From a virus (Duplodnaviria; Caudoviricetes): a stretch of DNA of 43,350 nt. The stretch is from the IMG/VR virus record IMGVR_UViG_3300044210_000067, positions 1-43,350 of that record; one strand, 5' to 3'. Positions 7,862 to 39,263 of this stretch are shown one piece after another (position 1 is the stretch's first letter; each line of letters begins with the position of its first letter). The position numbers and the translations under genes were made by a program. A model generated the notes under the pieces. That model saw only the letters and a program-made list of their open reading frames with translations, had not been told where the DNA came from and did not search any database.

Positions 7862-7900
7862 CTGTGTGACCGTGTCTTTGTGAGACACTAGGGGTATTTA

Positions 7901-7928
7901 GACAAGACTTTGGGTTGAAAGTCTTGTT
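7901..7928. promoter_or_regulatory. Inverted repeat (terminator or operator) overlapping the -35 of the downstream promoter
   Basis: ACAAGACTTT-gggttg-AAAGTCTTGT, a perfect 10-bp stem. Confidence 0.6.
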
Positions 7929-7943
7929 GCTACTGTGTATACT
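7915..7943 (+). promoter_or_regulatory. Sigma70-like promoter, probably giving a leaderless mRNA
   Basis: TTGAAA (7915-7920), 17-nt spacer, TATACT (7938-7943), with ATG 5 nt later and no SD. Confidence 0.65.
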
Positions 7944-7948
7944 GCAGT

Positions 7949-9796
7949 ATGAGTGTAGCAACAGAGCTGGCTAAACATGGAGTCGTAATATCCTGCGCAG
8001 TAACAGGTAGCTCAGTAATCGAAGTTTCTTGTGCATGTGGTAAACGCCAGCAACTGAAAGCGTCTTCTGTCCTCCGAACAATGAGGAGAGTCGGGAGTTA
8101 CCGGTGCTTGTCGTGTGGTATGATTTCCAAGCATGTTGATCCTGTTTATAGGGAGAGGCATCGATCAGGCATCAAGGAGTCTTGGACTGCAGAAAAACGG
8201 AAGAAGCAGTCTTGTATTTCTAGAGAGCTGTGGGCGGATCCGAAGTTCGCTGCTAAAATTACCCAAGCATCTAAAGATGCTTGGAGTGATCCGGATAAAA
8301 GAAGTGCAGCTTCACGAATGGTTCAGGGATTATGGCAGGACCCTGAGTATAGAGCTGTATTTGAGATAATCTGGGACTCGCCTGTTGAACATAAAGCTCG
8401 TTCTGAACGGGCCATGAAGATGTGGCAAGATCTTGAATATAGGCAGAGGCAGGAAACTGTTAAAATTACCCCGGAGCACAGGGCTCTACAGGCAGAGTTG
8501 GCAATTAAACGATGGCAAGATCCTAACTATCGTAATATAATCATTGAGTCTCAGAAGGAACTGTGGCTGGATCCAGCTATTCGGGAGGCAATGTCAGAGC
8601 GGGTGAAGGAACTATGGCAAGATCCTAAATATCAGAAAAAGCAATTTCATGTTGCAGTAGATCCTGGGCTTTGCAGGCAGAAATCAGAGAATGCTCGCCA
8701 TCAATGGCAGGATCCAAATGTGCGCACACTGCTTATCCAGAAGATTAAGGAGGCATGGGCTAATCCGAGTCTAAGGGAACAAGCATCGCTTACTAGTAAG
8801 CAACATTGGCAAGATCCTGAGTTTCAAAAGAAACAAGCTAAAGCTCGTGCTGCTATTCTTTTGAATGGTAAGGACTCTATTTTGGAACGGACGGCTCAAA
8901 TTGTGCTTGATGCACTTCATGTTCCATATGAGAGGCATTTTGTCATAGGATATTTTGAGTTTGATTTATTTATACCATCGCACAAATTACTGATTGAGTG
9001 TCAAGGTGAATACTGGCATTCATTACGCAAAGACAGGGATGCAGCCAAATTCACTTATATTGATACTTATTTCCCTGAGTATCGTATTATGTACTTATGG
9101 GAGCGTGATTTTATAGATCCTCGTCTCATTAAGCAGAAATTCATTCGGGAGCTTATGGGCGAGGATTCTCCACTTCATCAGGTAAATTTTTCTTTTGATG
9201 ATATTAGAATCAAGCAGCTTGATGTACATCAATGTCAGCCGAATTCATTCTACTCAGCTCCCGAAGAGTTTCTGCAGTCATTTCATTACGCCGGTTATGG
9301 ACGATCGGCTAAGGTGGTGTACGGGGCTTTTCTTGATGATATCCTGATCGGAGTTTGCAAATTTGCTTCGCCTATTCGGAACGAAGCAGCTACTTCTATG
9401 GGATTTTCCCAGGCACATGTACTGGAGCTTGATCGGTTCTGCTTACATCCGTGCTACCAAAAGAAGAACTTCGCATCTTGGTTAATATCTCGGTGCACTC
9501 GAATGGCTTTTACTAATTATTCGGGTGTTGAATCTATTTATGGGTATGCAGACGCAACGTTCGGTCATTCTGGAACGATTTATAGAGCTGCGAACTGGCG
9601 AACAGTACATACAGTTCGGCCTGATTATTACTATGTAAATCAGGACGGTTTTGTTATTCACAAGAAGACGCTTTACGATCATGCTAAGCGTAATGGGCGT
9701 TCCGAGACAGAATATGCCGCGGAGCATGGATACCTAAAGGTTCGCGGGCGCGAGAAAACGAAATTTGCTTTTGCACGTCCGAAATGTATTGTTTAG
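7949..9796 (+). CDS. Fusion protein: Zn ribbon + 17-aa W-x-D-P repeats + Vsr/DUF559-like endonuclease + Mom-like GNAT DNA-modification domain
   Basis: CACG...CLSC; about 11 W-x-D/N-P units; FEFDLFIPSHKLLIECQGEYWH; FLQSFHY...LELDRFCLHP...KNFASWLIS...YADATFGHSGTIYRAANW. Confidence 0.8.
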   Translation: MSVATELAKHGVVISCAVTGSSVIEVSCACGKRQQLKASSVLRTMRRVGSYRCLSCGMISKHVDPVYRERHRSGIKESWTAEKRKKQSCISRELWADPKFAAKITQASKDAWSDPDKRSAASRMVQGLWQDPEYRAVFEIIWDSPVEHKARSERAMKMWQDLEYRQRQETVKITPEHRALQAELAIKRWQDPNYRNIIIESQKELWLDPAIREAMSERVKELWQDPKYQKKQFHVAVDPGLCRQKSENARHQWQDPNVRTLLIQKIKEAWANPSLREQASLTSKQHWQDPEFQKKQAKARAAILLNGKDSILERTAQIVLDALHVPYERHFVIGYFEFDLFIPSHKLLIECQGEYWHSLRKDRDAAKFTYIDTYFPEYRIMYLWERDFIDPRLIKQKFIRELMGEDSPLHQVNFSFDDIRIKQLDVHQCQPNSFYSAPEEFLQSFHYAGYGRSAKVVYGAFLDDILIGVCKFASPIRNEAATSMGFSQAHVLELDRFCLHPCYQKKNFASWLISRCTRMAFTNYSGVESIYGYADATFGHSGTIYRAANWRTVHTVRPDYYYVNQDGFVIHKKTLYDHAKRNGRSETEYAAEHGYLKVRGREKTKFAFARPKCIV

Positions 9797-9799
9797 TTC

Positions 9800-10354
9800 A
9801 TGGAATCTCGAAAACGTTTGGCTGAGCTACTTACTGAATTATCGTTCATGCGTAAGCGAGTTATTCTTGCAAGCGGAAAGGAAAGTGATTTTTTCATCGA
9901 TTGCAAGCAAACAGTGCTAACTGCTGAAGGTCATTATTTAGTCGGAGAGCTCATGTATGAGGCTTTATCCAAGCTTCCGATTATGGCACAAGCTGTTGCT
10001 GGTGTGCAGCTTGGTGGATGCCCGTTGGCGAGCGCAGTCTCTCTTATTAGTTATCAGAAGGGGCATCCGCTACCGGCTTTCTACGTCCGCAAGGAGCAGA
10101 AGGACCACGGTTCGCAGAAGCTTGTGGAAGGCGATAAATCTTTGGTGCCCGGTATGAACGTTGTTCTTCTTGAGGATGTAATCACAACGGGTGGCTCGTC
10201 CCTCAAGTCTGCCGCCAATCTTACTATGGCCGGGGTGCATGTGGTGGGTATTGTGGCGTTGGTGGACCGTCTCGAGGGAGGTGCCGAGGCGATTAGGCAG
10301 GCCGAAATACCACTGATCAGTCTATATACACGTAATGACTTTATCCCTAGATAA
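9800..10354 (+). CDS. pyrE: Orotate phosphoribosyltransferase
   Basis: ILASGKESDFFIDCK, YVRKEQKDHG, PRPP-binding VVLLEDVITTGGS, LVDRLEGG. Confidence 0.95.
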   Translation: MESRKRLAELLTELSFMRKRVILASGKESDFFIDCKQTVLTAEGHYLVGELMYEALSKLPIMAQAVAGVQLGGCPLASAVSLISYQKGHPLPAFYVRKEQKDHGSQKLVEGDKSLVPGMNVVLLEDVITTGGSSLKSAANLTMAGVHVVGIVALVDRLEGGAEAIRQAEIPLISLYTRNDFIPR

Positions 10355-10592
10355 ACGTGCGCTGATAAAGCAGGCCCTCATGGAACACGAGGGCTGCAGT
10401 AAATTGGCAGCAGCCATGGTCAATCCGGTCCGGCGTCGGATTGACTATCAGTCGGTTGCTCGATCCATGTTTACAGTCATCAACATCACCATCCCATGTC
10501 CGGTGTGTGGTAAACATGTAGAGGATCTAATCCAGCATTGTAACGAGATTGGTGATGTAGTACACGCCGTAGTACTTGTCCATGAGACCTAG
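10335..10592 (+). CDS. Small protein: major-capsid N-terminus homolog fused to a putative Zn finger
   Basis: Residues 7-51 align without gaps to the capsid protein at 35413 (19/45 identical), followed by CPVC...HC...H. Confidence 0.75.
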   Translation: MTLSLDKRALIKQALMEHEGCSKLAAAMVNPVRRRIDYQSVARSMFTVINITIPCPVCGKHVEDLIQHCNEIGDVVHAVVLVHET

Positions 10593-10622
10593 GTAGTAAG
10601 CTTCTTTTTCCGGCCTTGGGGT

Positions 10623-11516
10623 ATGATTGTTGCTGGTGGCAATTTCCGTTTCAGTACTCCTTCGGTTGGCGGAGACTGGTTTTGGAGCGTTGATGCTAGT
10701 AATATCATCAACGATGGTCAATTGATTCAGGTTAAGGATATACAGACCCCATTCGGTCCGTTGTCCGTTTCCAATATACCTATTCCGAGTTCAGTTATAC
10801 TGGCGATGGCTGACTCGCTTACGCAATTTCAGCAGCAACTAGCACCAGTACTTCGGCTGCTTACGCCAGCAACCTACAGCTTCACCGTTACAGAAAGTGC
10901 TGCGGCCATGGATGCAGCAGCAATGCAATTCCAGAACGTTGGAGCGTTTGGGTCTTTCATGTCTGTTTCAGCAACGCCAGACGCGTCTTGGCTTACTGCA
11001 AGTCCGCCTAGTGTTGGTGGACTTGGTAAAAATCAGACTGGGCAATCCGAGGCTCGTATTTTACCTGCAAGTATGCTCGCGTCATCATCTCCGTACACTG
11101 GGCATATTACGCTGCAGGATAGTGCCAATCCGCCAAATTCGGTTGCCATCACTTTCAATGTCATAGTCTTACCGAGACCGACTATTGGTCTATCGATACC
11201 GAGTATTGGTCTCACCTATCATTTACTGACTTCGGTTGGTACATCTGCGATAGAAGTAATAACTAATGTCGGGCCGGCATTATCTTCTATGAGCTTCAGT
11301 CTTGCAAAGGTACAGAACCAGAGCCAATGGCTCAGTATAGTTCCGATTTCTGGCGGCCCTCTTGGTTCTGGTAACTCGGTGAGCGTTCTGTTCTCTATCG
11401 TGGGTATACATGCTCCGACTATTACTGGCAATTATTCCGAGACCATTCGTTTGACAGCACCTAGTGCAACGAATTCGCCTATCGATATACCAGTTACTTT
11501 GAGCGTCGTCCCCTGA
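10623..11516 (+). CDS. Putative virion protein with two Ig-like (BACON-type) domains
   Basis: Ser/Thr/Pro-rich beta-strand sequence with a duplicated pattern: NVG...SWLTASP...YTGHITL and NVG...QWLSIVP...YSETIRL. Confidence 0.6.
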   Translation: MIVAGGNFRFSTPSVGGDWFWSVDASNIINDGQLIQVKDIQTPFGPLSVSNIPIPSSVILAMADSLTQFQQQLAPVLRLLTPATYSFTVTESAAAMDAAAMQFQNVGAFGSFMSVSATPDASWLTASPPSVGGLGKNQTGQSEARILPASMLASSSPYTGHITLQDSANPPNSVAITFNVIVLPRPTIGLSIPSIGLTYHLLTSVGTSAIEVITNVGPALSSMSFSLAKVQNQSQWLSIVPISGGPLGSGNSVSVLFSIVGIHAPTITGNYSETIRLTAPSATNSPIDIPVTLSVVP

Positions 11517-17009: not shown

Positions 17010-20000
17010 ATGTCCGGGAAGGAGCCGGTTTACAAGAGTCAGCTTACTGGAACTGTTGATTCGTTCTTAGCGGGAAAGCGTCGCAAGCAAACCAAAGAGG
17101 CCGGCAAAGGCGATGGTGATGTTGATTTTCTCAACATTCTTGACTTCATCGACCGTTTCAAGCTGTTGCCGAATGGTTTGCATCCGGTGCAGAGGTTCAT
17201 AGTTAAGTTATACTATGGGATACCGTTAGATAGTACTGACCCTATTATTTCGGTCACAGACCGTTTTGGTAGCGAAGTACTGCATCTGTTTACTGAGGTT
17301 GAATACCTCAGGTATCTATATGATCATGGGCGATGCAACATTCGTGAGCAAGATGATAAGGTTCGGCATGAACTTATTCTAGTGCTTGGACGCAGAAGCG
17401 GTAAGAGTACTTTGGCAGCTGTTTTCTCTGCATATGAGATTTACAAGTTGCTCTGCCGAGGATACCCTCAAGCATATTACGGCATGCCGGCAGGATCCGA
17501 GATTCGCTTGCTTTGCGTGGCGAATGATAAAGAGCAAGCGGAAATTGTTTATGGGGATGTGCAAGCATACGCTGAGGCTATTGACTACTTCAAGAGCTCC
17601 ATCGCACATAGTACACGTCAGTACATGCGGTTCCGTACTGAGAGTGATCGTAAAAAGTTTGGAGCCACTGCTAAAGGAACTGTTGTCACATCTTTTCGTA
17701 GTTCCATCGCAAAAGGTATTCGCGGCCGTGGTGTTATTTGTGCAGTTTTGGATGAAATCGCTTTCTTCGTAGATAACGGCAAATGCCAAAATATCTCCGG
17801 AAAGGTACTTACTTCGCGTGGTTTGATCTCCCTTGATACTATTCTTACTATGGCAAGGGCAGATAGATCTCGCCATGGGTGGACCAACATTGATCCAATA
17901 GAAATTATCCAAGCTGGTGGACGTAGAGCCTACACTACTAGAGTTTATTATGGCGGGCTTCAGAAGACGCGATTGATAGTCACAGCTAGCCGTTATCGTA
18001 TTGAGCCTACTCCGGATCATCGGGTGAAGGTGATGTCAGATGACGGAGATATTGTTTGGAAATACGCTCGAGATATAAAGCCAGGTGACTATATTGGAAT
18101 TGCTCGTGGCACTTGCTTTTGGCCAGAGCTTCGATATGACTGTAGGGACCTTATTCCATTACATGGTCGATTCCAATGTCATATCCCAGCAGTTGTTGAT
18201 GAAAGACTGGGGGAGTTTCTTGGTATTCTGGTTGGGGATGGGACATGGACCTCCGGCAATTGCAAGAGTCACATACAAGTAACGGGTGGGTGTGAACAAT
18301 TCCTGCCATTTGTCCAGTCGCATTTTGCTCGGTATTTTAATCGATTCGGAACATCCCGAAAGTCTAAACACGTACGGAATACCTGCGAGGTTTCTCCATG
18401 GTGTGTTACCAAGACATCTGGTTCATTTCGGATGTTCTTGGATAAGCTTGGGTACCGCCTGGATGTAACGAAAACTACCAAGTCGGTTCCTTGGGTAATC
18501 TTTGCTAGTCCAAAGTCTGTAGTTGCTGCATTTTTGCGCGGTTTGTTCGAAACAGACGGAGGAGTAGAGCACGGCGGAACCACTGTTTCCTTTGCAACCG
18601 CTAGTCAGAGCTTGGCTGAAGAGGTTCAGGCTCTACTATTGAATTTTGGGATTACAGCAAGTATACATGAGAAATATAATAGAAAATATGCCAGAAATTA
18701 TTTTTATCTATGTTTGACTGGGGCTGAATCTCGTCGTATCTTCTGGCAAGAAATCGGTTTTATTACGCGTCGAAAGAATTTAGCCCTATCTCGGGGTCTT
18801 TCTCGAGGGAGAGACGCATCTAATATTGTGCCAACACAAGTTAATAGGGTTCGGCGCATTATTACGTCAATTCCTCGATCACGTAAGAATGAAAAAGGAG
18901 ACAACTTACGATCTTGCGCTTCACGGATAATGTCAAGCTCATTGCGATTGCGGGCGCCTGGTTATCCATCGTATAGCTCATTGCGTCGATTCGTGACCCT
19001 GATGCAAACAAATGGAATTCATGGGTCTGATGTTGATGCGTTGAATGAAATCTGTAGGCTTGATTATTATTGGGATTTGGTAGTCTCGGTTGATAAAACT
19101 GAATGTGAGACTGCTGATCTGTGGGTACCAGATGGGAATGAATATGTAGCCCAGGGGATGGTAAATCATAATTCGTCTGCCGAGAAGATCTACCGCGCCA
19201 TGAACCCTTCTTTGGCGCAGTTCTCGCCCAAAGATCCAAATAATCGTCGCATACCGACAGGACCATCAGATGGCCGAATGATACTGATCTCATCTCCAGA
19301 TGCACGGGATGGTTTTTTCTACCGTCAATATCAGATGGCTATGTCCAAAGATCGTGGATCAATGGACATGTTGGTGATTCAAGCGCCAACCTGGGAGGTG
19401 AATCCGACGTTGGATCAGAGTTACTATGAGAAGGAATACTACAAGGATCCCCGTGTATTTATGACTGAACACGGGTCGGAATTTTCTGATCGTGTGAGTG
19501 GTTGGATTGAGGACGCTAAGGATCTAATGGATTGTATTGATTCAGAGGCACGTCCGAAGGAACGTGGTAACACAAGGGAGGTACATTTTGCTGGTTTAGA
19601 CTTTGGAATTTCGAATGATGGGACTGCCATAGCTATCACGCGGATTAATGAAGCAAAGATCGATCTTGCATATCATGAAATTTGGTATCCGAAAAGGTCG
19701 TGGCGAGAAGTAAATCCACATTTATCGTCTTCAGTTTCGGATTATGTGTCGCAGCTCGAGCATGTAACGAGGCTAGATATCGACGAAATCGCCAATTGGC
19801 TTCTGGCACTCTCGAAGAGGTTTTATATTCATAAGGGTATATTTGATCAATGGGCCGGTCCATTGTTTGAACAGGTGTTACATAAACGTGGATTGCGACA
19901 GTTTGAAATGCGTAATTTTCACGTGGTAGACACTTCAAATATGTGGCAAACATTTAAGATGTTCATGCTCCATCGTCAGTTCCGCATGTATGACTGGCCA

Positions 20001-20333
20001 CTCCCAACGGGATCTGAGGCTGGAATGCGGCATTCTCCTCTAGTGGATGAACTGCTCGAACTGCAGGCAACAAGTGCCGGCAAGAACTTAATCACGGTTG
20101 AAGCTCCGAAGATTGCTGGGAAGCATGATGATCAATCTGATGCTCTAGCTCGGTCGGTCATGCTGGCGTCTGAATATATTCGACAGAATCCGGGGGTTCT
20201 CACGGTTGGGGGTCGTTTGCATGAGTTGCCCCGTTTTGATAATAAACTCGGTTATCGGCATTATCATCGGGTGAGGACAAGGATGCACGGGGTAATCAAA
20301 GAGCGCATGGTGCCACGGATTGCCCGATTCTGA
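17010..20333 (+). CDS. Terminase large subunit with one intein
   Basis: Walker A LGRRSGKS, VANDKEQA, Walker B CAVLDEIAFF, coupling motif ILISSP, nuclease FAGLDFG and HDDQSDA. Confidence 0.93.
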   Translation: MSGKEPVYKSQLTGTVDSFLAGKRRKQTKEAGKGDGDVDFLNILDFIDRFKLLPNGLHPVQRFIVKLYYGIPLDSTDPIISVTDRFGSEVLHLFTEVEYLRYLYDHGRCNIREQDDKVRHELILVLGRRSGKSTLAAVFSAYEIYKLLCRGYPQAYYGMPAGSEIRLLCVANDKEQAEIVYGDVQAYAEAIDYFKSSIAHSTRQYMRFRTESDRKKFGATAKGTVVTSFRSSIAKGIRGRGVICAVLDEIAFFVDNGKCQNISGKVLTSRGLISLDTILTMARADRSRHGWTNIDPIEIIQAGGRRAYTTRVYYGGLQKTRLIVTASRYRIEPTPDHRVKVMSDDGDIVWKYARDIKPGDYIGIARGTCFWPELRYDCRDLIPLHGRFQCHIPAVVDERLGEFLGILVGDGTWTSGNCKSHIQVTGGCEQFLPFVQSHFARYFNRFGTSRKSKHVRNTCEVSPWCVTKTSGSFRMFLDKLGYRLDVTKTTKSVPWVIFASPKSVVAAFLRGLFETDGGVEHGGTTVSFATASQSLAEEVQALLLNFGITASIHEKYNRKYARNYFYLCLTGAESRRIFWQEIGFITRRKNLALSRGLSRGRDASNIVPTQVNRVRRIITSIPRSRKNEKGDNLRSCASRIMSSSLRLRAPGYPSYSSLRRFVTLMQTNGIHGSDVDALNEICRLDYYWDLVVSVDKTECETADLWVPDGNEYVAQGMVNHNSSAEKIYRAMNPSLAQFSPKDPNNRRIPTGPSDGRMILISSPDARDGFFYRQYQMAMSKDRGSMDMLVIQAPTWEVNPTLDQSYYEKEYYKDPRVFMTEHGSEFSDRVSGWIEDAKDLMDCIDSEARPKERGNTREVHFAGLDFGISNDGTAIAITRINEAKIDLAYHEIWYPKRSWREVNPHLSSSVSDYVSQLEHVTRLDIDEIANWLLALSKRFYIHKGIFDQWAGPLFEQVLHKRGLRQFEMRNFHVVDTSNMWQTFKMFMLHRQFRMYDWPLPTGSEAGMRHSPLVDELLELQATSAGKNLITVEAPKIAGKHDDQSDALARSVMLASEYIRQNPGVLTVGGRLHELPRFDNKLGYRHYHRVRTRMHGVIKERMVPRIARF
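17784..19172 (+). mobile_element. Intein with LAGLIDADG homing endonuclease in the terminase (463 aa)
   Basis: Starts CQNISG, block B PTPDHRV, LGILVGDG and LRGLFETDG, ends MVNHN before Ser(+1). Confidence 0.92.
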
Positions 20334-20987: not shown

Positions 20988-23900
20988 ATGCCTAGCAACA
21001 AAAAGGTTGGAGTGCGTCCGGATCCCCGTGTAAATATGCCGGTGGTGAAGGTCGATGATCAGGTACATGCTCGCCCTAAACTGACTAAGCTTGAGAAACT
21101 GGCTCGTAAAGAGGCATCCCAGTCCATACGTATTGCGGCTATCAGCGGGGACTTCGGAAACGCAGGAGATCTATCTATCAGGACTGCAGATGCTAATTTT
21201 TACAGTCCTCAGTTATCAACAGATTTCTTGGAGTTGCCGCAATCCGAACGTGAAAAGCGTGAGCTTTTTCGGTTTTGGTATAACTGTTTTCCACCAAGTG
21301 CACCGGTAACTATAGCAAATGGAACTACTATCCCGATTGAGGAGGTCCGGGTAGGGGATCGTGTTCCGAATGGAATGGGTGAGCCTACACAGGTGACTCG
21401 GCTGTTTCGGAATCACATTGATGATGTGATAATTCAAATGCGAGTACGAGGGGTGCAGAGTGATGTCCAAGCTACTGGAAACCATCCGTTTTATGTGTTA
21501 CGGGCCAGCGCAGTGGACTGCCAACATTCACAGGCAACAGGGGCTTGTAAGAATGGAAATAATGATATTTGCCGTCGATTGAAATGTGACGGGACAGACT
21601 TTGGAACTCCAGAGTTTATATATGCTAAGGACCTGAAGGTGGGGGATTATATTATATCCCCGTGTCTAGCTGATATAAGGGATTGTGGACTAAAACGTGA
21701 AGAAATTCGACTGCTTGGATATTACGCTGCAGAAGGATCAATAGCATATAGGGCTGCAGGTGTGGTTCGGGGAGTTGAGTTTTCTCTATCTTTAGATGAA
21801 GCTACAACCATAGCTGTAGAAATATCTGAGCTCTTTGAGCGGCTGTTCGGGAAGAAGGCCCGTATTTATTTGGACAATAATCGGCACACTACTAAGGTGG
21901 TTTGTGACGGTATTGAATTTGCTAGGTTCTGTGAGGAGTGGGTCGGCCGCGGTTCACACAAGAAACAGCTTCGTGAGGATCTGGTTAAGTCACATCCTGA
22001 GCAAGTCTTGGAATTTCTTGGAGCCTACTGGAATGGAGACGGCTGCTTCACTGATAATTCGTATACGGCCGACACGATGAGCAGAAATCTTGCTGCTCAG
22101 GTTTTCCGGATGCTGCGGGGTCTTGGTATACCGGCTTATCATTCACAATATGATAGACCATTGCGGATTATTAATGAGAGAAAGTATCCACCCGGGATAG
22201 TTCATTATATTTCTTTTCCAGGCCGATACTATGATACATTTTCCAAGTATGCCAATTGGGTTAATGGAGAATACTCAGCTTCTTCAACTCGTGTTTATAT
22301 TATTCAATCAAAGTATGGGTTTCTGCATCGTATTGAATCGATAGAGGCTGTGCCATACCAAGGATATGTGTATAACATTGAAGTTGACGGGGAGGGAGAC
22401 CGTAAGAGCTACATAGCTTATAACCTGGCTACACATAATACACATCCAATTGTTGGCGCTGCGATTGACTTCCACTGCTTCCCACCCGGAGCCCCGGTGA
22501 TGATGAGGGATGGGACGGCAAGTCCAATAGAGCTGCTGCAGATTGGAGACGAAGTTATAAACGGGATGGGTGAATCAACAAAAGTCCGACAGACATTCAA
22601 GCATCATGTGCAAGGTCCTGTAACTCGCTTGAAAGTCCGTGGCATACAAGAAGATATTGTTTGTACTGAGAATCACCCATTTCTTGTATACCGTGCGAAG
22701 CAGATTGACTGCAAGTTTTCGGCGAATGGTATGGGGGCTTGCAAGGTTGGTACGAAGTTCCTCTGCAGGCAAAAGCAATGTGCTGGAAATGTTTTTGGGC
22801 GGCCACAATTTGTGTTTGCACAGGATTTGGAAGAAGGAGACTACATCTGTTCACCTGCTATGGTGACTGTTAGATCCACTTTCAGCAGAGCCCAGTTGCG
22901 CTTGCTTGGATATTATGCTGCTGAGGGGTCACTGTGTCGGACCAAATACGGGAAGTTTGATAGGGTAGTATTTACTCTTGGTGCTAGTGAATTTAATACT
23001 ATTGCCAATGAGGTGATGGAAGCCTTTCATTCTGAATATGACCATCTTGCACACAAACGTATGCGGATGGATTCCAATGCATGCGATGTTAAATGTTACA
23101 AGAAGGACTTTGCCGAGTTCTGCGAGAGGCACGTTGGTAGTGGATCCCATAACAAGAGGCTGAGTCTTGACCTGATGGATTCCCCTCGAGAGGATATACT
23201 GGAATTTTTGGGTGCGTATTGGAATGGTGACGGTAGTCTTACTAAGAACGGGTTTGTCGCCACAACTGTTTCGGTACAACTAGCCCATCAAATTTATGCT
23301 CTAGCTTTGAAGGTTGGGTACACCCCGACGCTACATACAATTAAGCCTAAAAGTCGGGCCTCAGGTTTCAGATCCAGAGGAAATACATATCGAATTATTA
23401 TTCCGTACCGCGTCCATTCAGAGTTCTTAATGTATGCCAATTTTGTACAAAATGGATATGATGCTAAGACAACGCGTGAATATCATATTCAAGTTGGTTC
23501 CTATGCACTAAGGCGGATTGAAAAGATTGATACCATTCAGTATGATGGTTTGGTATATAACATTGAAGTTGATGGGGAGGGGGACCGTAAGAGTTATGTT
23601 GCTTACGGATTAGCGACTCATAATACTGATGTGCCAATGTCGAAGATCCGATTATCTTTACCTAAGGGTAAAGATGTTAAGCGGAACAGACAGATATTAC
23701 ACTTCTACACACAAATGTGTAATAGGATTCGACTTTTTCAGGCGTTATATGACGCTACACATGAGTATTGGCTTCATGGCAATTGTATACCTGAAAAGTC
23801 CAGAGTTCGTATGCCAGGAGGATATAAAAACGCCGGTATGATTGAGGTTGGTGATTTGGTTCTGACCCATCATGGTAGATGGAGACCTGTCACGACCGTG

Positions 23901-26900
23901 TTCACCCGGGAAGTTAATGAACTTCTTTCTTTCTCCTTTTGGAAGACATATCGCCAATTACAGACAACCGATGATCATCCTGTGGAGGTCCTGTGTGGGA
24001 ATGAATTTAAGTTCCTACCAGCGAAGGATATAACTTCTGGTGATTATGTTCGTATAACATGGCCTAGTGAAAATCACGACGTCGACATTGTTGATTTTCG
24101 GTCTGATGTGGTGAAGGATACAGGTAATGGATACACAGTGATGCGATCGTATTCGCACACTCGAAATCCAGACGCCGCTCGGGCAAGGGCAGGCATGTTG
24201 GCTTGGCTATCAACTATCACAAAGCCAACAGTCAGAACGCGCGGTGACCTGGCACGTGAATTTCATGTATCAGAGTCAACACTGAATAATGTAATTACTA
24301 AGTTGCGCTCTGAACTACCGGTATTTCATCGACGAGTCGGTAGGCATGAAGGATCAAGGGTAGAATGGCTCCCGATAGGCCCTATGGAGGACGATCCTAG
24401 TCGTTATGAATGGACCCAGCCCTATACATACGAATCACCTTTATCGTTGCCGGTGTGTGATAATTTCTTGTATGTCGTTGGGTACTGGCTCGGTGATGGA
24501 ACGCTAGGTAGAGACTCCAACCGAGATACCTGGGGGCGTGGTTTATGGCAAATTGTCTTTTCATCTAAGTCTGGTGGATCCCGGGAGCGGATATATAATT
24601 ATCTGTTGACAGCATTCGGCTCCAAATGTGTTCGATCGTGGAACTCCAACGGGATGGATCATGTTAGAATTATATCCAGTCCTGCCTTCATTGAATGGTG
24701 GTCCAGCACGTTCGGTGATTCTTCTTTTGGCAAAAATCCAAAGAAGGTTCCAGAGTGGATATTGAACTTGCCGCCGGATCGGCTGCGCCACGTCGTGGCC
24801 GGCCTAATTGACTCTGACGGATGTGTAGGGCAGACACGCAGGGGTCATGTCACTTTTGCCGTGTGCTCACAGGCTTTGGCTGACTTTTTGCGCGACGCAG
24901 CCATGAAACTGGGTGCCGTGGTGAACGAAAACACACGTTCCACTCGAAAAGTACGCCTTCCAAACGGGAAGCCTGCTAAAAGCAGGCCCCAATATATCAT
25001 ACAAGCGCTGGATAGAGAATCATGTGAAAGAATGACCTCTGTCGGCCTTAAACGACCTCTTCCTGATCAAACGTATTCACGTCCGACACATTTTATTCGT
25101 ATTGATGATTCCGTTGCACTTCAAGTGCGCGATCGGGTAAGGATCCCTGGATGCCGTGTAGTCAACTTTGAGGTGGATGAAGATCACACTTATCAGGTGG
25201 ATGGATTTAGCACACACAATTGTTTCCTATTTGCCGAAGATCACGACATGACTGATGACATTCCTAGTGAATTGTTATCTGATGAAGTTGAAGAAGAGGT
25301 AAACGAGACTGATTATGCTGGTCGTGTCCAGACCAGAAAAGAGAGTAAGAAGCAGCAAAAACCGGATAGCGAACGTGCCAAGAACATCCGGGAGTATGTA
25401 GCACAAAATTATCGCGGGTGGGAGCGATTGCAGATTTTACCGCCTGAACAAGTTAAGCTCGAAGTTTTTCAGTATACGAATCGGGTTCGGATGGAGCTTA
25501 TTCCATCCGAAAAGGACCGACAGGTTGTAATGAAGGCGGTGGAACAGGGTGATCCTGAAGCAGCACGCATTGCCGATGATATTCCAGAGCAGATCCGACG
25601 GGACCTGCTTGACGGTCAGCCGATTCCGTTGAACACATCACCATTTGATGATTTCTTGTGTTCGTCATTCTGTTATCATCTATCACACAAGAAATCAGCT
25701 TATGACGACCGAGGAATTTCATTACTTGAACGGTGTCACCTCCCTGGGACCGAGGTTACGGCATTGAGGGATGGGCAAGTACTTCAGGTTCCGATCGAGG
25801 AGCTTGATCCAGAGACTGACAAAGTACTGGGAGGCTCAGGGAAGTGGAGAGGGTTCCAGTGGGGAACCAGGCCATATAATGGATCAGTAGTTGAAATCGA
25901 GTTCGAAAAACTATCAAAATCGATTGTTTCTACTCCAGATCACAAAATACACATTCTCCGCGACGGAATTGAATTGGAGACGACAGCGGACAAAGTCATG
26001 GTCAAGGACTATATCAGGGCAGCTGTCGTGAAGGCTCCCCACATCATCGATAAGGTCAGTCTCCACGATTTCTTTTTGAAAGAGAAATGGACCTATAAGC
26101 ACAGAGACACGAAAGAACAGCGCCTAGTGTCTATTACTCCGGAGAGGATTAGGGACGGGCTAATTCTCCACCACTCATGGATTGACGAGAACCCGCAGAG
26201 GGCCGGCCGTGCTAGTCTTTTGAAACGGGTGTCCGAATGGATATCTGGATTAAAGGAAGAGACTGTTTTATTGTCGGAAGACTTTCGCAGTATATTCGGC
26301 GGGATGGGGGACTCTGTTTACAGGGCTCTCATGGCGGATCTCGCGGTGGCCGGCTACGAGGCGCCGATCGTGACCGTGACCGGGTCGAGATTCAAGAGTA
26401 AAGGGCGGCTTTTCAGACCAGCGGTTGTTGACGCTTCTAGTCTTTATGAAAAGACCTCGACCCAAGAATGTCCATCTGAGCTGAAATTGACCAGGGAGCT
26501 CGGGTACTTGATTGGATACTTCCTGGGAGACGGATGTATTTCGAGCAGAAAATCTGCCATTACATATGGATTACTTGATATATGTTATGATGCAGAAACA
26601 CCTAATAGTTCTAAATCAATTGATCTGATCAAGGAATACTGTTCACAGTTTAAAGTTCGCTCTGTTCATCGAACTAACAGAGTAGACAGTATACAATTTC
26701 ATGATGACTGGTTCAATCGTTGGCTTGGAAGAAATTTCGGACACAATAAGCAGGACAAACATCTTCCGGAGTGGATTGATTCCACTCCTGAGGAATTTAG
26801 GTTTGGGCTTTTGAATGGACTGTTCGATTCGGACGGATGGGTCAGTTTATATAAAAATCAACCTGGATACGTTGACGCTACGATTTGCATGACAACCAAA

Positions 26901-28052
26901 GGGCTTGTTGATCAGCTTCAAATTATGGCTTATGGGCTTGGGATGGCACCATCTCGGCGTCTGAAATTGGAGCGAAAGGTACGTCAGGCAAACGGGATAG
27001 TTTCTGATGCTAAGGCACAGCATTCTCTCGTGTTTGGATGCTCGAATGACTTAGTTCGTCTTAGGGGAGGCGGATCTGTGAAGTTATCTGGAGTCGAATT
27101 GAAAGACAAGACCGAATCAGGGCGAAAACATATCGTTGTCGATAATCATATTTATATCAAAGTGAGAAAAACGTGCAACTGGATCCATTCAGGCCCAGTT
27201 TATAGCCTGAATGTGGATGAGGATCACAGTTATTTTGCCGGATTTGTGTATACGGATAACTGTTTGAGAACATTACTATACCAAGACAAATTGCGACAGG
27301 CACAGACATCGATAGCCTCTCGTGCCATGACACCCAAGCGCGTCGTTTGGGCAGACAAAATGTCTGATCCGGATACGGAGGCCTTACGCGATCAAATTGA
27401 ACAGGCAATTATTGATCCAGATTTCACTGTTGTCACCAACTTTGAGATCCACTGGGATGAGGTTGGGGCTCGGGACCGGCTTCTTGATCTCGGGACTGAA
27501 TATGAAATTACTAATAAACTTCTGTTTATTGGTTTGCGCATTACTGAGTCAATGCTTACCGGAGAGTCTACGTACTCGGGTGAACGAATCCATCTTGATG
27601 TAATGAATACGATGTATTTGCTCTACCGTGAAACTGTCTCAGAGTTTGTAGAGCAATTCTTATTTGCCCCGGTGGCCGAAAAGAAGGGATTTGTCGAGGA
27701 GGATGAAAACGGGAATCGAATACTACTTTATCCAAAGCTACAATTCACCCGTTTAGCCCTTCGTGATAATTCAGAACTTCAAGATTTCATGTTCAATCTC
27801 TACCAAAAGGGATCTTTACCGATTGCCTTTATTTTGGATTTGTTGAACATTGATGCTGATGAGGCTTTAGACTTATTGAAACGTGATATGTGGACTCCGA
27901 ACGATTCAACGTTCAATGAGTTCGTACGGTCTGTTTTGCAGAAGATTGGTGATGATGCCGGAAGCTACACCGATGTACTCGAAAAAGTAGCTACCAATGC
28001 CGGGCTTAAGATGACAGGTCAGAAGGGTGACCGGTTTGGTAAGAGTGAATAA
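20988..28052 (+). CDS. Portal protein with four inteins (2354-aa precursor, 598 aa spliced)
   Basis: Joined exteins read FWYN-THPIVGAAIDFH-TDVPMSK...EYWLHGN-CFLF...RGISLLER-CLRTLLYQDKLRQAQ..., a portal-like pattern. Position between terminase and protease. Confidence 0.85.
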   Translation: MPSNKKVGVRPDPRVNMPVVKVDDQVHARPKLTKLEKLARKEASQSIRIAAISGDFGNAGDLSIRTADANFYSPQLSTDFLELPQSEREKRELFRFWYNCFPPSAPVTIANGTTIPIEEVRVGDRVPNGMGEPTQVTRLFRNHIDDVIIQMRVRGVQSDVQATGNHPFYVLRASAVDCQHSQATGACKNGNNDICRRLKCDGTDFGTPEFIYAKDLKVGDYIISPCLADIRDCGLKREEIRLLGYYAAEGSIAYRAAGVVRGVEFSLSLDEATTIAVEISELFERLFGKKARIYLDNNRHTTKVVCDGIEFARFCEEWVGRGSHKKQLREDLVKSHPEQVLEFLGAYWNGDGCFTDNSYTADTMSRNLAAQVFRMLRGLGIPAYHSQYDRPLRIINERKYPPGIVHYISFPGRYYDTFSKYANWVNGEYSASSTRVYIIQSKYGFLHRIESIEAVPYQGYVYNIEVDGEGDRKSYIAYNLATHNTHPIVGAAIDFHCFPPGAPVMMRDGTASPIELLQIGDEVINGMGESTKVRQTFKHHVQGPVTRLKVRGIQEDIVCTENHPFLVYRAKQIDCKFSANGMGACKVGTKFLCRQKQCAGNVFGRPQFVFAQDLEEGDYICSPAMVTVRSTFSRAQLRLLGYYAAEGSLCRTKYGKFDRVVFTLGASEFNTIANEVMEAFHSEYDHLAHKRMRMDSNACDVKCYKKDFAEFCERHVGSGSHNKRLSLDLMDSPREDILEFLGAYWNGDGSLTKNGFVATTVSVQLAHQIYALALKVGYTPTLHTIKPKSRASGFRSRGNTYRIIIPYRVHSEFLMYANFVQNGYDAKTTREYHIQVGSYALRRIEKIDTIQYDGLVYNIEVDGEGDRKSYVAYGLATHNTDVPMSKIRLSLPKGKDVKRNRQILHFYTQMCNRIRLFQALYDATHEYWLHGNCIPEKSRVRMPGGYKNAGMIEVGDLVLTHHGRWRPVTTVFTREVNELLSFSFWKTYRQLQTTDDHPVEVLCGNEFKFLPAKDITSGDYVRITWPSENHDVDIVDFRSDVVKDTGNGYTVMRSYSHTRNPDAARARAGMLAWLSTITKPTVRTRGDLAREFHVSESTLNNVITKLRSELPVFHRRVGRHEGSRVEWLPIGPMEDDPSRYEWTQPYTYESPLSLPVCDNFLYVVGYWLGDGTLGRDSNRDTWGRGLWQIVFSSKSGGSRERIYNYLLTAFGSKCVRSWNSNGMDHVRIISSPAFIEWWSSTFGDSSFGKNPKKVPEWILNLPPDRLRHVVAGLIDSDGCVGQTRRGHVTFAVCSQALADFLRDAAMKLGAVVNENTRSTRKVRLPNGKPAKSRPQYIIQALDRESCERMTSVGLKRPLPDQTYSRPTHFIRIDDSVALQVRDRVRIPGCRVVNFEVDEDHTYQVDGFSTHNCFLFAEDHDMTDDIPSELLSDEVEEEVNETDYAGRVQTRKESKKQQKPDSERAKNIREYVAQNYRGWERLQILPPEQVKLEVFQYTNRVRMELIPSEKDRQVVMKAVEQGDPEAARIADDIPEQIRRDLLDGQPIPLNTSPFDDFLCSSFCYHLSHKKSAYDDRGISLLERCHLPGTEVTALRDGQVLQVPIEELDPETDKVLGGSGKWRGFQWGTRPYNGSVVEIEFEKLSKSIVSTPDHKIHILRDGIELETTADKVMVKDYIRAAVVKAPHIIDKVSLHDFFLKEKWTYKHRDTKEQRLVSITPERIRDGLILHHSWIDENPQRAGRASLLKRVSEWISGLKEETVLLSEDFRSIFGGMGDSVYRALMADLAVAGYEAPIVTVTGSRFKSKGRLFRPAVVDASSLYEKTSTQECPSELKLTRELGYLIGYFLGDGCISSRKSAITYGLLDICYDAETPNSSKSIDLIKEYCSQFKVRSVHRTNRVDSIQFHDDWFNRWLGRNFGHNKQDKHLPEWIDSTPEEFRFGLLNGLFDSDGWVSLYKNQPGYVDATICMTTKGLVDQLQIMAYGLGMAPSRRLKLERKVRQANGIVSDAKAQHSLVFGCSNDLVRLRGGGSVKLSGVELKDKTESGRKHIVVDNHIYIKVRKTCNWIHSGPVYSLNVDEDHSYFAGFVYTDNCLRTLLYQDKLRQAQTSIASRAMTPKRVVWADKMSDPDTEALRDQIEQAIIDPDFTVVTNFEIHWDEVGARDRLLDLGTEYEITNKLLFIGLRITESMLTGESTYSGERIHLDVMNTMYLLYRETVSEFVEQFLFAPVAEKKGFVEEDENGNRILLYPKLQFTRLALRDNSELQDFMFNLYQKGSLPIAFILDLLNIDADEALDLLKRDMWTPNDSTFNEFVRSVLQKIGDDAGSYTDVLEKVATNAGLKMTGQKGDRFGKSE
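21285..22439 (+). mobile_element. Portal intein 1 (385 aa, LAGLIDADG)
   Basis: CFPPSAPV...ATGNHPF...LLGYYAAEGS...FLGAYWNGDG...LATHN then Thr(+1). Confidence 0.93.
22476..23624 (+). mobile_element. Portal intein 2 (383 aa, LAGLIDADG), paralog of intein 1
   Basis: CFPPGAPV...CTENHPF...LLGYYAAEGS...FLGAYWNGDG...LATHN then Thr(+1). Confidence 0.93.
23784..25220 (+). mobile_element. Portal intein 3 (479 aa, LAGLIDADG plus HTH-like insertion)
   Basis: CIPEKSRV...TTDDHPV...VGYWLGDG...VAGLIDSDG...FSTHN then Cys(+1). Confidence 0.93.
25734..27260 (+). mobile_element. Portal intein 4 (509 aa, LAGLIDADG, atypical DN terminus)
   Basis: CHLPGTEV...STPDHKI...IGYFLGDG...LNGLFDSDG...VYSLNVDEDHSYFAGFVYTDN then Cys(+1). 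Confidence 0.9.
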
Positions 28053-31008: not shown

Positions 31009-31587
31009 CTAAGATTCATGCACGTCGCGCACGATACTGTTTATAGTTACTTGTTCCCAGAGCAAGGCTACATCCTTTGCCGAAACTTCTCCGTGCTTTA
31101 CATCTAGACAGTGAATGATCTCCTTAAATTCATGCTCGATTGATATGAGTATATCGGTTTGGCGACGGATGACTTGAGCGCGGTCCACACGTTTTTCTTT
31201 GACGGTTTTTCGCATCACCTGACGAATCTTGTTTCGGATCAGTCGTACTGCGTTGCAAATGGCATGCTGTTGGCGGATAGGTAGTTTGGATCCAGGGTGC
31301 CAATAATATGGTTCAGCCTGAATTCCGGATATTTGCATTATAGCTTTACCCATCTCAAGATAGTCTTGCTGGGCTGCAATTTTCCCATTACGAGATGTTA
31401 CAGTTCCAATTTCGGCCCAATAAGTGAACGGAAAGGTTCGTTCGACAGAATCGAGCTTTAGTGTCACTCGGGGCCAAAGCCCTGATTTTGGATCTCCGAA
31501 TTGGACTTTTTTATGGGCAAGGACTATTTGCACTTTTTTTACATGAATTCGGCCAATGCGTTTAACAATGTAGTCGGGTGGAGTCAT
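31009..31587 (-). CDS. Hypothetical protein (accessory gene on the opposite strand)
   Basis: 192-aa ORF filling the gap in the + strand gene series; ends VHES. Confidence 0.7.
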   Translation of the reverse strand: MTPPDYIVKRIGRIHVKKVQIVLAHKKVQFGDPKSGLWPRVTLKLDSVERTFPFTYWAEIGTVTSRNGKIAAQQDYLEMGKAIMQISGIQAEPYYWHPGSKLPIRQQHAICNAVRLIRNKIRQVMRKTVKEKRVDRAQVIRRQTDILISIEHEFKEIIHCLDVKHGEVSAKDVALLWEQVTINSIVRDVHES

Positions 31588-35412: not shown

Positions 35413-36303
35413 ATGAACCCCTTCGGTATACAGGTAGTTGATAACGCCCTTAAGGAAAGACTGGTGGACCAGCACATTGGGAGCGGCGCAGGTCGTAAGC
35501 GCATTGCCGCCTCGATGGTCCAACCTCTACGTGATCGTAGAGATTACTCTTCCGTTGGTCGGAAGACATTTCTTGTTGAGCAGATACCGGACGGTGCCAT
35601 GCCGGTGTACGACAAGGACCCGGAAGTGGTGGCGTATGTCATCGGTGAAGAGGGCGAAAGCATTACTGCAATTGCCAAGCCTCGCCGTGTGATTTTCCCA
35701 CTGTTCGAGATTGCAGCTCTACCCAAAGCTCCACTGACTCAGGTCAAGGAACGCCGGTACGACCTCCTGAAGCGTATGCAGGATCTTGGCAAGGCTCAGA
35801 TCCAGGCTGCAGAAGATGATCGAGTCTTCTCGATCATGGATGCAGTTGCTGTTAACGGGTTCGATTCACTTCCGGGTGGAACGAATCCAGATATTCCGGT
35901 TGTTGCTCCTATATCGCCGGATATCCTTGCAGATGCATATGCTGAAATAGAAGGTCACGACCTTCGTGTTGCTCGTGTGTTCCTGAATGCACGTGATTAT
36001 GCGGATATCCGGAAGTTTGGACGCGATGTCTTGGACATTGAATCGCAGGCAACTCTGTGGAAGACGGGCATGATGGCAACTGGGTGGAATGCCCAGTTTA
36101 TTGTCAGCCGTCTTGTTCCTGCCGGCGTGGTTTATATTTGCTGCGAACCGGCGCAATTTGGACGAATCCCAGTTCGTACCGAATTGACTGTATTGTCTGC
36201 AGACAATTCTGAGGACAGGACGATTGGATTCTCGATGTTTGAGAATTTAGGCATCGGGGCTTACAACCCACGCGGTCTAGTTCGTCTTATCGTCCAGCGG
36301 TAA
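35413..36303 (+). CDS. Major capsid protein (HK97 fold, compact/encapsulin-like size)
   Basis: Strong SD AAGGGAGGT. Backbone-helix-like DLLKRMQDLGKAQIQAAEDDRVF, P/A-domain-like VFLNARDYADIR, C-terminal GIGAYNPRGLVRL. Followed by a terminator. Confidence 0.82.
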   Translation: MNPFGIQVVDNALKERLVDQHIGSGAGRKRIAASMVQPLRDRRDYSSVGRKTFLVEQIPDGAMPVYDKDPEVVAYVIGEEGESITAIAKPRRVIFPLFEIAALPKAPLTQVKERRYDLLKRMQDLGKAQIQAAEDDRVFSIMDAVAVNGFDSLPGGTNPDIPVVAPISPDILADAYAEIEGHDLRVARVFLNARDYADIRKFGRDVLDIESQATLWKTGMMATGWNAQFIVSRLVPAGVVYICCEPAQFGRIPVRTELTVLSADNSEDRTIGFSMFENLGIGAYNPRGLVRLIVQR

Positions 36304-36401: not shown

Positions 36402-37928
36402 ATGGGCTGCAAAAAATGCTCATCTGCCAATGATTCTTTTTTTGGATACTGCAATGCATGTTCGCAGCAGGCCAGCTATTTGGAGAAATATCCCGGCTTA
36501 CAGTCTTTTCTTTCTCTTGAGTCGATATCCCTTCTTGCAGGAAAGGTTTCAGCATCTGACAATTTGATTTTAGAGTGCAAGTGCCAGGTATGTCAAAGGC
36601 AATCTCAAGTGAAGCTGATCAGCGTGCTGAAGCAGTATAGGCGCCATACCAATGCTAAGCGCCCCATCTTCTATCGTTGTCTGCGCTGTTCTAAGGCCGG
36701 AGTAACGCATCTGACTGTTGACACTGTTCAGAGTGTGATCGATATAGAATCAACGATGATGCAGTTTGGAGGCCTTCCGAAGAATGTGAAGCACGGCAAA
36801 GTAGTAGCCATTTGTGAAGATTGTCATCAGTCCCAGACAGTTAAACTTAGCAGTCTCTTGCATCAAGCAAGAAGGCACCGTATGGCTGGAAGAACGTGCA
36901 TCTATAAGTGCTTCCGATGCGGTATAACACGTGAGGATGCTGTTGTTAGGTCTGCCGTTGCTAGAGCCAAGCAGCTGTCTAATGGGTTTCGATCATGTCT
37001 GGAGACAGCAATGACGAATCGACTTACGACCCTAGGTATTAGTTTTTGGTCGCAGCATGCCGTCGGCCTCTACACATGGGATTTCTTCCTGCCAGATTTC
37101 GGAATTCTCATTGACGTTGATGGGGAATATTGGCATTCAAGGCATGATAGAATTTGTAAGGACACGGCCAAGATGACCTATACACAGCGGTACTTTCCGG
37201 AATATCGTACCGTTCGAATTGAAGAGAAAAATTTTCTGAATCCGGCCATTGTGGATCGTCTATTACTAGCTCTACTAGGTCAGCTTCCGGCTCCAGTCAA
37301 GATTGACTTTGATTTTGCCAACGTGTCAGTGGATAAAGTTGGTGGTAAGGGGGATCCTGTAGATGTATATCGTTCTTTCCTTGATTCTTATCATTATGCC
37401 CAATGCGGCCGGCCCGGATTTGTGGTCTATGGTGCGGTCTTAGCTAGTGAATTAATTGCAGTGTGCAAATTCAACTCTGTCACCAGGCAGGGTACGCCTG
37501 CGGCTCGTGGCCTCAAATGTCACGAGGTTTTAGAGCTCGATCGCTTTTGTATTCACCCGTCTTATCAGAAAAAGAATTTTGCATCATGGTTCCTCTCTCG
37601 GTGCATATCTCGCGTTTTTTCTGACTATTCTGGTATAGCAGAACTTGTTAGCTTTGCCGACGAGACCTTCGGCCATTCAGGGACGATTTATGCCGCGTCG
37701 AACTGGGTATACATCGGGCATACTAGACCAAGTTATCACTATATGGATCCCTTAGGAGTAGCAATTAATAAGAAGAGGGTCTATGATATCGCATCCAAGC
37801 TCAAAATGACTGAGCGGGAATATGCTGATAAGCATGAATTGGCTCAGTTTGCTGAGAAGCCTAAGGCCAAGTATGTTTTTCCTCGTAGGAACCGGAGAAT
37901 AACTTCATCTATAACCAGACTCCAATGA
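36402..37928 (+). CDS. Fusion protein: multiple Zn ribbons + Vsr/DUF559-like endonuclease + Mom-like GNAT domain (paralog of 7949-9796)
   Basis: Three CxxC...CxxC modules; YTWDFFLPDFGILIDVDGEYWH; FLDSYHY...LELDRFCIHPSYQKKNFASWFLSRC...SFADETFGHSGTIYAASNW. Confidence 0.8.
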   Translation: MGCKKCSSANDSFFGYCNACSQQASYLEKYPGLQSFLSLESISLLAGKVSASDNLILECKCQVCQRQSQVKLISVLKQYRRHTNAKRPIFYRCLRCSKAGVTHLTVDTVQSVIDIESTMMQFGGLPKNVKHGKVVAICEDCHQSQTVKLSSLLHQARRHRMAGRTCIYKCFRCGITREDAVVRSAVARAKQLSNGFRSCLETAMTNRLTTLGISFWSQHAVGLYTWDFFLPDFGILIDVDGEYWHSRHDRICKDTAKMTYTQRYFPEYRTVRIEEKNFLNPAIVDRLLLALLGQLPAPVKIDFDFANVSVDKVGGKGDPVDVYRSFLDSYHYAQCGRPGFVVYGAVLASELIAVCKFNSVTRQGTPAARGLKCHEVLELDRFCIHPSYQKKNFASWFLSRCISRVFSDYSGIAELVSFADETFGHSGTIYAASNWVYIGHTRPSYHYMDPLGVAINKKRVYDIASKLKMTEREYADKHELAQFAEKPKAKYVFPRRNRRITSSITRLQ

Positions 37929-38747: not shown

Positions 38748-39263
38748 ATGGCTTTCATCGGAATCCCGATACCCGCACAGGAAATTACGAAACTGGCAAT
38801 GACGGCAACAAAGCTGCCAGGTCAACTTGAACCGCCGTCTGAGTATCATACGACATTATTCTACCTTGGTAAGGGAACGTCATTCAGTGTGCTCATGCAA
38901 GCCTTGGTTGCGATTCAGCCAGTTGTAGCTTCATACTCCAAATTTCTTGTAGGTGCAGCTCGGATGATTGCATTTCCGAAGGGTGATGATGGGCACCCAC
39001 TTGTGGCGCGTGTCTTGAGTCCTGTGCTGCATAATTTACGGACCATGCTTGCGACGGTGTTGGACACCGCTGGTGTTTCATATTCTAAGAAATGGCCTAT
39101 ATGGATCCCGCATATATGTCTTTCGTACTCTCCTCATACGATGCTTGCCAATGACTTAGTAACGCCTATTGTTTGGCAGGTGGATAAAGTGCACGTATGG
39201 GGAGGAGATGACTGGAACACTCGTTTCCATGCAGAACTTGAACTCGGCACAGCCTGGCCGTAA
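38748..39263 (+). CDS. 2H phosphoesterase (2'-5' RNA ligase / Acb1-like)
   Basis: AFIGI at the N-terminus and two H-x-T-like motifs: YHTTLFYLG and PHICLSY. Confidence 0.82.
   Translation: MAFIGIPIPAQEITKLAMTATKLPGQLEPPSEYHTTLFYLGKGTSFSVLMQALVAIQPVVASYSKFLVGAARMIAFPKGDDGHPLVARVLSPVLHNLRTMLATVLDTAGVSYSKKWPIWIPHICLSYSPHTMLANDLVTPIVWQVDKVHVWGGDDWNTRFHAELELGTAWP

Follow-up and report, generated by a model that had tools for sequence, protein, structure and literature searches.

The window, the whole 43,350-base stretch of a virus record that we analyzed, carries jumbo phage replication and head genes; the complete relatives of its phage are 362–441 kb long. Our subject is a short ORF downstream of a pyrE-like gene (Table 1). 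An earlier note on this DNA had described it as intact and overlapping pyrE, and so it is: 85 aa with a 20-nt overlap. Its frame has the best codon score of the six (0.04 versus −0.29 or lower). In the database the gene is called from ATG 10380 (70 aa), but we favor ATG 10335 because residues 5–15 are homologous to relatives and to the first helix in the major capsid protein (MCP). No clear ribosome-binding site was seen for the ORF, and a promoter scan was uninformative (10 sites versus 6.4±2.3 in shuffles). The pyrE-like gene is context only: it was not seen at this slot in ten relatives, which show no synteny with pyrE. The surrounding region (7862–10622), between a sigma-factor gene and a conserved gene at 10623–11516, varies in content across 11 genomes; in a few of them it again holds a long gene resembling the Mom-like gene of the window.

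Table 1. Features of the window, with positions counted from its first base
Feature	Position	Strand	Basis or remark
Mini-protein, 85 aa: MCP piece, C2H2-like module and tail	10335..10592	+	Intact ORF; MCP homology; codon score
MCP-derived piece, residues 7–51 (MCP 14–58)	10353..10487	+	Two predicted helices and a D-Y-x-S-V-x-R stretch
Predicted zinc module, C55-x2-C58-x9-H68-x8-H77	10497..10565	+	Four candidate ligands invariant in 6/6 aligned sequences; pLDDT 85–87
C-terminal tag helix of the mini-protein, V-x-x-V-H-E-T-stop	10554..10592	+	Weak variant of the VMES tail; five-position core matched
Major capsid protein (MCP)	35413..36303	+	HK97 fold, phage G gp27 family; phrog_2522 E 4e-44; PDB 6WKK E 2.8e-52
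MCP residues 14–58, counterpart of the mini-protein's piece	35452..35586	+	Gapless alignment
pyrE-like phosphoribosyltransferase (Pribosyltran)	9800..10354	+	Upstream of the mini-protein ORF, 20-nt overlap; context only
Second tagged ORF, 192 aa, ending VRDVHES	31009..31587	−	Matrix score 13.3; no MCP piece

Residues 7–51 of the mini-protein align without gaps to residues 14–58 of the window's own MCP (19/45 identical), with the two starts about 25.1 kb apart. The earlier note had pointed to this match, and it is confirmed: its alignment score of 88 is reached by none of 2,000 shuffles (maximum 54); when 100 shuffles were compared with all 797 six-frame segments in the window, the best score was 64, and the next best real segment of the window scores 44. 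BLASTP gives E 2e-9 (26/74 identical). Independent matches to the phrog_2522 major head protein (E 4.3e-6) and to phage G gp27 (6WKK; E 5.1e-5) place the piece, by sequence homology, in the HK97-fold MCPs of the phage G gp27 family. It covers profile positions 12–57 of about 295 only and falls short of the complete fold with its E-loop, spine helix, P-domain and A-domain. Helices predicted at residues 7–16, 18–29 and 38–45 match MCP helices at 11–22, 25–34 and 48–52. The mini-protein has no match in PADLOC and none at 0.9 or above in the ESM Atlas.

The piece is strongly diverged. Compared with the own MCP, codon positions 1 and 2 are identical in 24/45 and 28/45 codons, and position 3 agrees at chance level (11/45). 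MCPs of the own clade keep a median of 35 of the 45 residues, which puts the piece far beyond normal MCP variation. Among 221 MCP entries, a few of them partial, the best match is a phage-G-type MCP (22/45), and diverged MCP paralogues of 300–350 aa reach up to 25/45; the own MCP is no nearer than either. The piece retains eight of the nine residues that never vary among 28 MCPs (identities down to 32%), versus 11 of the other 36 (p 0.002). This retention fits selection on the protein, but it would be expected just as much if the piece had recently come from a distant MCP outside the sample. The protein collection contains 1,700 relatives of the window's MCP, the best 120 of which are 83–100% identical to it. 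The diverged paralogues, which occur in related jumbo phages and have N-terminal extensions (L001 4737–5636; P0123, P0124, P0129 and P0139; L283 1015–2004), are the best matches to the mini-protein's piece, at 53–60% for the top four. A third lineage of true MCPs with the mini-protein's signature was not found in IMG/VR, which gave a paralogue only. In G039, a phage-G-type MCP gene lies in four ordered pieces (L296 1514–4523, minus strand), with gaps of about 0.6–1 kb that are probably introns.

Behind the piece, the earlier note saw a switch to a zinc finger, CPVC-x9-HC-x7-H, and this motif is present as claimed (C55-P-V-C58-x9-H68-C69-x7-H77). The fused C2H2-like module stands, with zinc binding as a prediction; one refinement is that C69 is not conserved in the five closest module relatives. 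C55, C58, H68 and H77 are invariant in these relatives and are therefore the likely ligands. The structure model has pLDDT 85–87 at the module and an overall pTM of 0.36. The module may resemble classical C2H2 fingers, with C-x2-C...H...H after a predicted hairpin and helix, and the top rows of Foldseek, all weak (E≥2.1), are fingers of this class. It differs from them in its x9 and x8 spacing, in histidines that sit on two separate predicted helices and in being a single copy. The classical spacing (PF00096, C-x2-4-C-x12-H-x3-5-H) is absent, no Pfam family matches at E≤0.01, and fold searches gave nothing significant (Foldseek E≥2.1; VIA-align best Z 3.4, mostly over residues 1–45).

The VHET end was read correctly by the earlier note, which missed that it is a variant of a genome-wide C-terminal tag with consensus E-x-I-V-x-E-V-M-E-S-stop. 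We scanned for this tail in the window and ten relatives (five complete genomes and five fragments, two of them short of the last 2–5 kb), taking the relatives in 20-kb stretches with loss of ORFs that span stretch edges. An iterated 12-position matrix marks 675 of 20,183 ORFs, versus 1 of 20,183 internal windows, and complete genomes have 73–159 tagged ORFs each. In G013, 98 of 4,822 ORFs end in [VILM][MH][ED][ST], where 1.0 is expected. The spread is uneven, with no pattern matches in the fragment G006 and three in G001. The mini-protein's tail (V79..VHET85-stop) has the core [VI]-x-x-[VI]-[MHQ]-[ED]-[ST]-stop, which occurs internally in 276 of 1,724,308 windows (1.6e-4). It scores 4.5 on the matrix, below the threshold of 9, and we class it as a divergent variant; the tails of relatives that share the module score 11–17 and end VMES or VMET.

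Hydrophobic peaks at −3/−4 and −7/−8 give the tail a helical pattern. Since all synonymous codons occur in it, both serine classes included, the tail is a protein motif. The same full codon use rules out a DNA-level recombination site. Only TCA is enriched, partly via stop/start overlap (212 ATGA and 76 GTGA of 697). A Pfam scan of the longest 150 of the 245 tagged ORFs of at least 130 aa named eight and left 142 without a family. The eight are an ankyrin protein, two LRV/HEAT, two DUF4116, a RecD2, a GIY-YIG and a DHHA1 protein, so that five are repeat proteins. The tail is carried by hundreds of unrelated accessory proteins, whose genes lie mainly in accessory blocks distant from the head genes. 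No host protein ending in the tail was found in GTDB, where the 18 matches were 13 internal ones, followed by Trp, and five in frames of at most 41 aa. For the G001 paralogues a shared tail is unsupported in the 20 kb examined (4/119 ORFs).

In some genomes the tail also ends a RecD2-like helicase (L150 1582–6171, minus strand) and a RuvC-like resolvase (L179 14718–15455, minus strand). Its presence on core enzymes may hint at docking rather than a destruction signal. The window's second tagged ORF sits among head-region genes, antisense to and between them, and no Pfam family was found for it. G017 has a second tail, [KR]KI[IF][TV][KRQ]-stop, on eight short ORFs (L180 12824–17653 and L183 15468–15662, both minus strand), three of which match MCP pieces at E≤1; the design recurs there with another tail.

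Relatives of the mini-protein share its three-part layout. In 28 related records we found, besides MCP genes, short ORFs like it in G023, G017 and G013. An exhaustive search returned 19 non-self proteins: nine short ones with an MCP piece (eight N-terminal, one C-terminal), a CxxC module and a VMES-like end; five long diverged paralogues; and five with the N-terminal piece but without the module. A profile search gave 27 rows, of which nine have the mini-protein's layout, four of them new; the other 18 were set aside because they look like truncated or frameshifted ordinary MCP genes. The closest relatives are 43–48% identical. No close orthologue turned up in a word-index search, which returned the mini-protein alone, or in IMG/VR, which returned only a 299-aa MCP paralogue, and scans that used two siblings as queries gave no close copies. 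Sibling genes are under purifying selection (dN/dS 0.09–0.24). One pair has 0.24 over the whole gene, 0.12 over module and tail and 0.44 over the MCP part, the last from two synonymous and three non-synonymous changes in this one pair. Two other pairs have 0.20 and 0.09, and an adjacent tagged gene has 0.50. The earlier note's idea of a repurposed capsid fragment is supported by the significant alignment, the intact homologues of the same layout and the selection on siblings; the three grounds it had named for dropping the idea (no intact homologues, no purifying selection, a non-significant alignment) all failed.

The module travels between MCP pieces. Residues 55–85 match, at 43–48% identity, a module found with unrelated MCP pieces, and in different ORFs the same module carries MCP 8–58, 87–131 or 265–292. 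A DNA pattern for the module alone found 11 loci, which are nine distinct ORFs, six of them new. Four of the six have an MCP piece, two being close variants of known ORFs and two independent, with MCP 87–131 and 267–292; of the remaining two, one is a deletion fusion in which just the end of a piece is left, and the other encodes an unrelated, untagged protein. Of 18 tagged MCP-piece ORFs, 11 contain zinc-like motifs, versus 148 of 685 other tagged ORFs (p 4e-4). Module shuffling is seen at L289 902–1096, in a close relative of G017: there a deletion joins the zinc module of an MCP-piece gene to the beginning of a tagged gene upstream of it.

In calling the mini-protein a mimic of the capsid N-terminus, the earlier note was right about the N-arm origin of the piece and missed that many other parts of MCP are used in this way. 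With an MCP profile, 32 short ORFs are matched at E≤1 across 11 genomes (41 real rows versus none in reversed controls). At E≤0.1 there are 25 in 7 of the 11 genomes, of which 18 carry the tail, two the KKIIT tail of G017 and five neither. Tails are enriched on such ORFs (14/21, versus 522/3,481 of non-overlapped small ORFs; p 1e-7). The pieces jointly cover MCP profile positions 8–151 and 162–293, nearly the whole MCP, with coverage peaks at the N-terminus, the most used part, and at about 165–245, which, judging from the HK97 fold, we take to be the A-domain. Targeted stretches of more records yielded two related ORFs in G016 as well as tagged pieces in G040 and G010. Of the 33 partial MCP matches in a six-frame scan, 30 have no stop, two touch the natural end of an ORF and the last, a weak one (E 0.62), has three stops; all confident pieces are sense, in frame and in open ORFs. 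The pieces are highly diverged and at variable sites, and their breakpoints vary widely, buried strands included. An 86-aa ORF of G016 (L300 1025–1285, minus strand) has a tail-like stretch in the middle, flanked by MCP pieces 238–260 and 265–291.

We assessed the preference for MCP by comparing profiles of 134 core families (53,524 positions) with the bodies of 671 tagged ORFs. There were 23 matches at E≤0.01, with one in the reversed control. MCP, which contributes 296 of the 53,524 positions, accounts for 15 of the 23, in five genomes. The others are two RuvC-like matches (tagged enzymes, one cut at a stretch edge) and one match in each of six families. The 671 bodies contain no tagged piece of the portal, the terminase or the decoration-like gene adjoining MCP, so named by position. 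MCP is the most conserved core family (90% versus at most 74%), which favors its detection, but about twofold only: simulated pieces are detected at 0.9 for MCP versus a mean of 0.48 at 42% identity, and at 0.5 versus 0.22 at 33%. The decoration-like gene has detectabilities of 0.75 and 0.3 and yet gave no pieces. Among 2,494 untagged small ORFs, partial matches are mainly to a shared leader, to homing-endonuclease and DnaJ domains and again to MCP (8/81). An MCP piece is present in 18 of 703 tagged proteins, so most have none.

The reading that we tentatively favor, while giving it somewhat less than an even chance, is that the mini-protein is a bait with a docking tag, an adaptor against host proteins that bind MCP. 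The diverged MCP piece would bind host proteins that recognize capsid protein, either immune sensors or chaperones; the shared tail would pass what is captured to a common partner for sequestration or destruction; and the outcome would be anti-defense. That the protein is made, binds zinc, docks through its tail, holds MCP-recognizing host proteins and counters defense is what we infer. Host MCP-binders would be the simplest partners, by analogy with adaptors, because the bodies are MCP pieces on a constant terminal helix; the repeat proteins of the tagged set are as expected for adaptors with a variable binder and a constant dock. Besides the library of pieces, the preference for MCP, the module that carries different pieces, the open frames, the retained invariant residues and the protein-level nature of the tail, support comes from MCP being a common trigger of bacterial immunity, and from one coverage peak (about 165–245) lying in the presumed A-domain, the part bound by Avs7, Avs8 and Avs10.

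MCP triggers Avs7, Avs8, Avs10 and Dsr1 (10.64898/2026.01.04.697583), CmdTAC by competing for a chaperone (10.1101/2024.02.24.581662), and CapRel and Thoeris (PMC13728456; see also PMC9712102). What links these defenses to the mini-protein is the sensed molecule. Avs7, Avs8 and Avs10 are described as binding the folded A-domain via extended shape complementarity (10.64898/2026.01.04.697583), and since they read a folded shape, a 45-residue N-terminal piece cannot copy it. MCP pieces could also activate a system such as CmdTAC rather than block it, because it responds to chaperone competition. Portal, terminase and tail proteins are likewise sensed by defenses but gave no tagged pieces. Also against the bait are the weak tail of the mini-protein, an MCP-part dN/dS drawn from five changes and the 142 of 150 long tagged proteins with no Pfam family, as well as the tail's presence at the end of RecD2-, GIY-YIG- and RuvC-like enzymes, for which a degradation signal is a poor explanation.

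A wider version, which we consider doubtful, is a programmable adaptor system: hundreds of small proteins would share one docking helix and a common effector (a protease, an unfoldase or a sequestering hub), and a sub-library of overlapping baits from the own MCP would remove capsid-recognizing host proteins before capsid synthesis peaks.

The target could instead be the capsid. The piece would then replace the real segment on MCP subunits and poison or time assembly, either of a phage G-family competitor or of the own procapsid, with the tail routing trapped MCP to a partner. A self-associating target would fit the sampling of MCP but not of other sensed proteins; the mini-protein keeps invariant MCP residues and scores 36.1 bits on a phage-G-type profile versus 25.9 on the own-clade profile. 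We regard this as unlikely, because the diagnostic columns of the mini-protein are mixed (8 G-type and 5 own-type), other pieces are clearly own-type (up to 15 versus 2), and breakpoints are scattered, including within buried strands. Moreover, own-clade MCPs are 83–91% identical, so that an inhibitor of relatives would strike the phage itself. A role as capsid-homing handle, in which the piece binds scaffold, portal or neighboring subunits so that the tagged module is carried onto the virion or into it, would suit the heavy use of the N-terminal helices, as HK97 capsid N-arms make inter-subunit contacts. It is improbable given that most tagged proteins have no MCP piece, that tagged genes are chiefly away from the head genes and that pieces from the whole MCP would be needless.

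Two further readings give the piece no function of its own. It is quite unlikely that MCP pieces are by-products of gene capture, with abundant material fused to a cassette of zinc module and tail, selection acting on the cassette and the pieces tolerated as filler. The lower dN/dS of module and tail in one pair (0.12 versus 0.44), the shuffling seen at L289, the divergence and variable sites of the pieces and the absence of a close orthologue from the collections searched would all agree with it. Capture does not readily explain why every confident piece is sense and in frame in an open ORF, why pieces are still recognizable despite synonymous saturation, or why the decoration-like neighbor, expected to be equally abundant and nearly as detectable, gave no pieces versus 15; a reverse transcriptase was found in none of five complete genomes. 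A very improbable reading is that the ORF is decaying after duplication of the 5′ end of MCP and that its zinc-like part is drifted MCP sequence. BLASTP does run weakly into residues 52–79, adding seven identities, and the degenerate tail and unclear ribosome-binding site point the same way. But the frame is open despite saturated third positions, and the match of residues 55–85 to a module common to unrelated MCP pieces (43–48%) largely refutes this reading.

Poxvirus ankyrin/F-box and SOCS-box adaptors combine a variable binder with a constant C-terminal dock. The tagged set likewise has many unrelated bodies, some with ankyrin or HEAT-like repeats, on one shared C-terminal helix; there is no sequence relation, the virus here is bacterial and the bodies include pieces of its own capsid. 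Phage T4 internal proteins have an N-terminal capsid-targeting sequence that the prohead protease cuts. They too are unrelated small proteins with a common short terminal motif, whereas the tail here is C-terminal, with no evident cut site and with unrelated N-termini, so that the tagged proteins are not of the T4 type. Ccm of SaPIbov5 is an HK97-fold capsid-interference protein of a satellite, a capsid homologue turned against assembly. It would be a parallel if the mini-protein acts on capsid assembly, but in Ccm the satellite supplies a whole fold, and the pieces here are short and come from the lytic phage itself. To gp27 of Bacillus/Lysinibacillus phage G (6WKK), mini-protein residues 6–48 are 46.5% identical at the N-terminus; the mini-protein has about 45 of 280–296 residues, without E-loop, spine helix or A-domain, and adds the zinc module and tail.

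Mimicry is an accepted anti-defense mode of phages, with described mimics copying DNA or antitoxins, according to the EVADES study (10.1101/2025.06.06.658234), whose main text does not contain the word ‘capsid’. The accessible text of a 2026 jumbo-phage review (PMC13282480) has no tagged capsid pieces or such a tail. Across the literature searched, with subscription papers and bioRxiv supplements outside its scope, we found no description of tagged capsid pieces, an MCP-piece decoy or the VMES tail. The layout of the mini-protein is a real, recurrent and undescribed architecture, with a function that we can only propose.

Of all phage components, MCP is the one most often sensed by bacterial immunity and the hardest for phages to alter (83–91% conserved in this clade). 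If these genes do form a library of tailed capsid pieces that is maintained, they would be an undescribed way round this constraint. Each piece would mark a candidate epitope and could serve as a hook for capsid-binding host proteins, and identifying the partner of the tail would give a common mechanism to 70–160 genes per genome that have no annotation. On the rival readings, too, jumbo phages would have a new route of gene birth, in which small proteins selectively take up pieces of the capsid protein as modules.

Other genes of the window gave further observations. Each of those at 7949–9796 and 36402–37928 combines a Mom-like acetyltransferase domain with a nuclease-like one, in a family of 24 members in 7 of 11 genomes. 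The terminase and portal genes (17010–20333 and 20988–28052) contain inteins with LAGLIDADG domains, several of them in the portal gene. The gene at 38748–39263 encodes a 2H-phosphoesterase with a weak match, under the family cut-off, to the anti-CBASS protein Acb1 (E 0.009).
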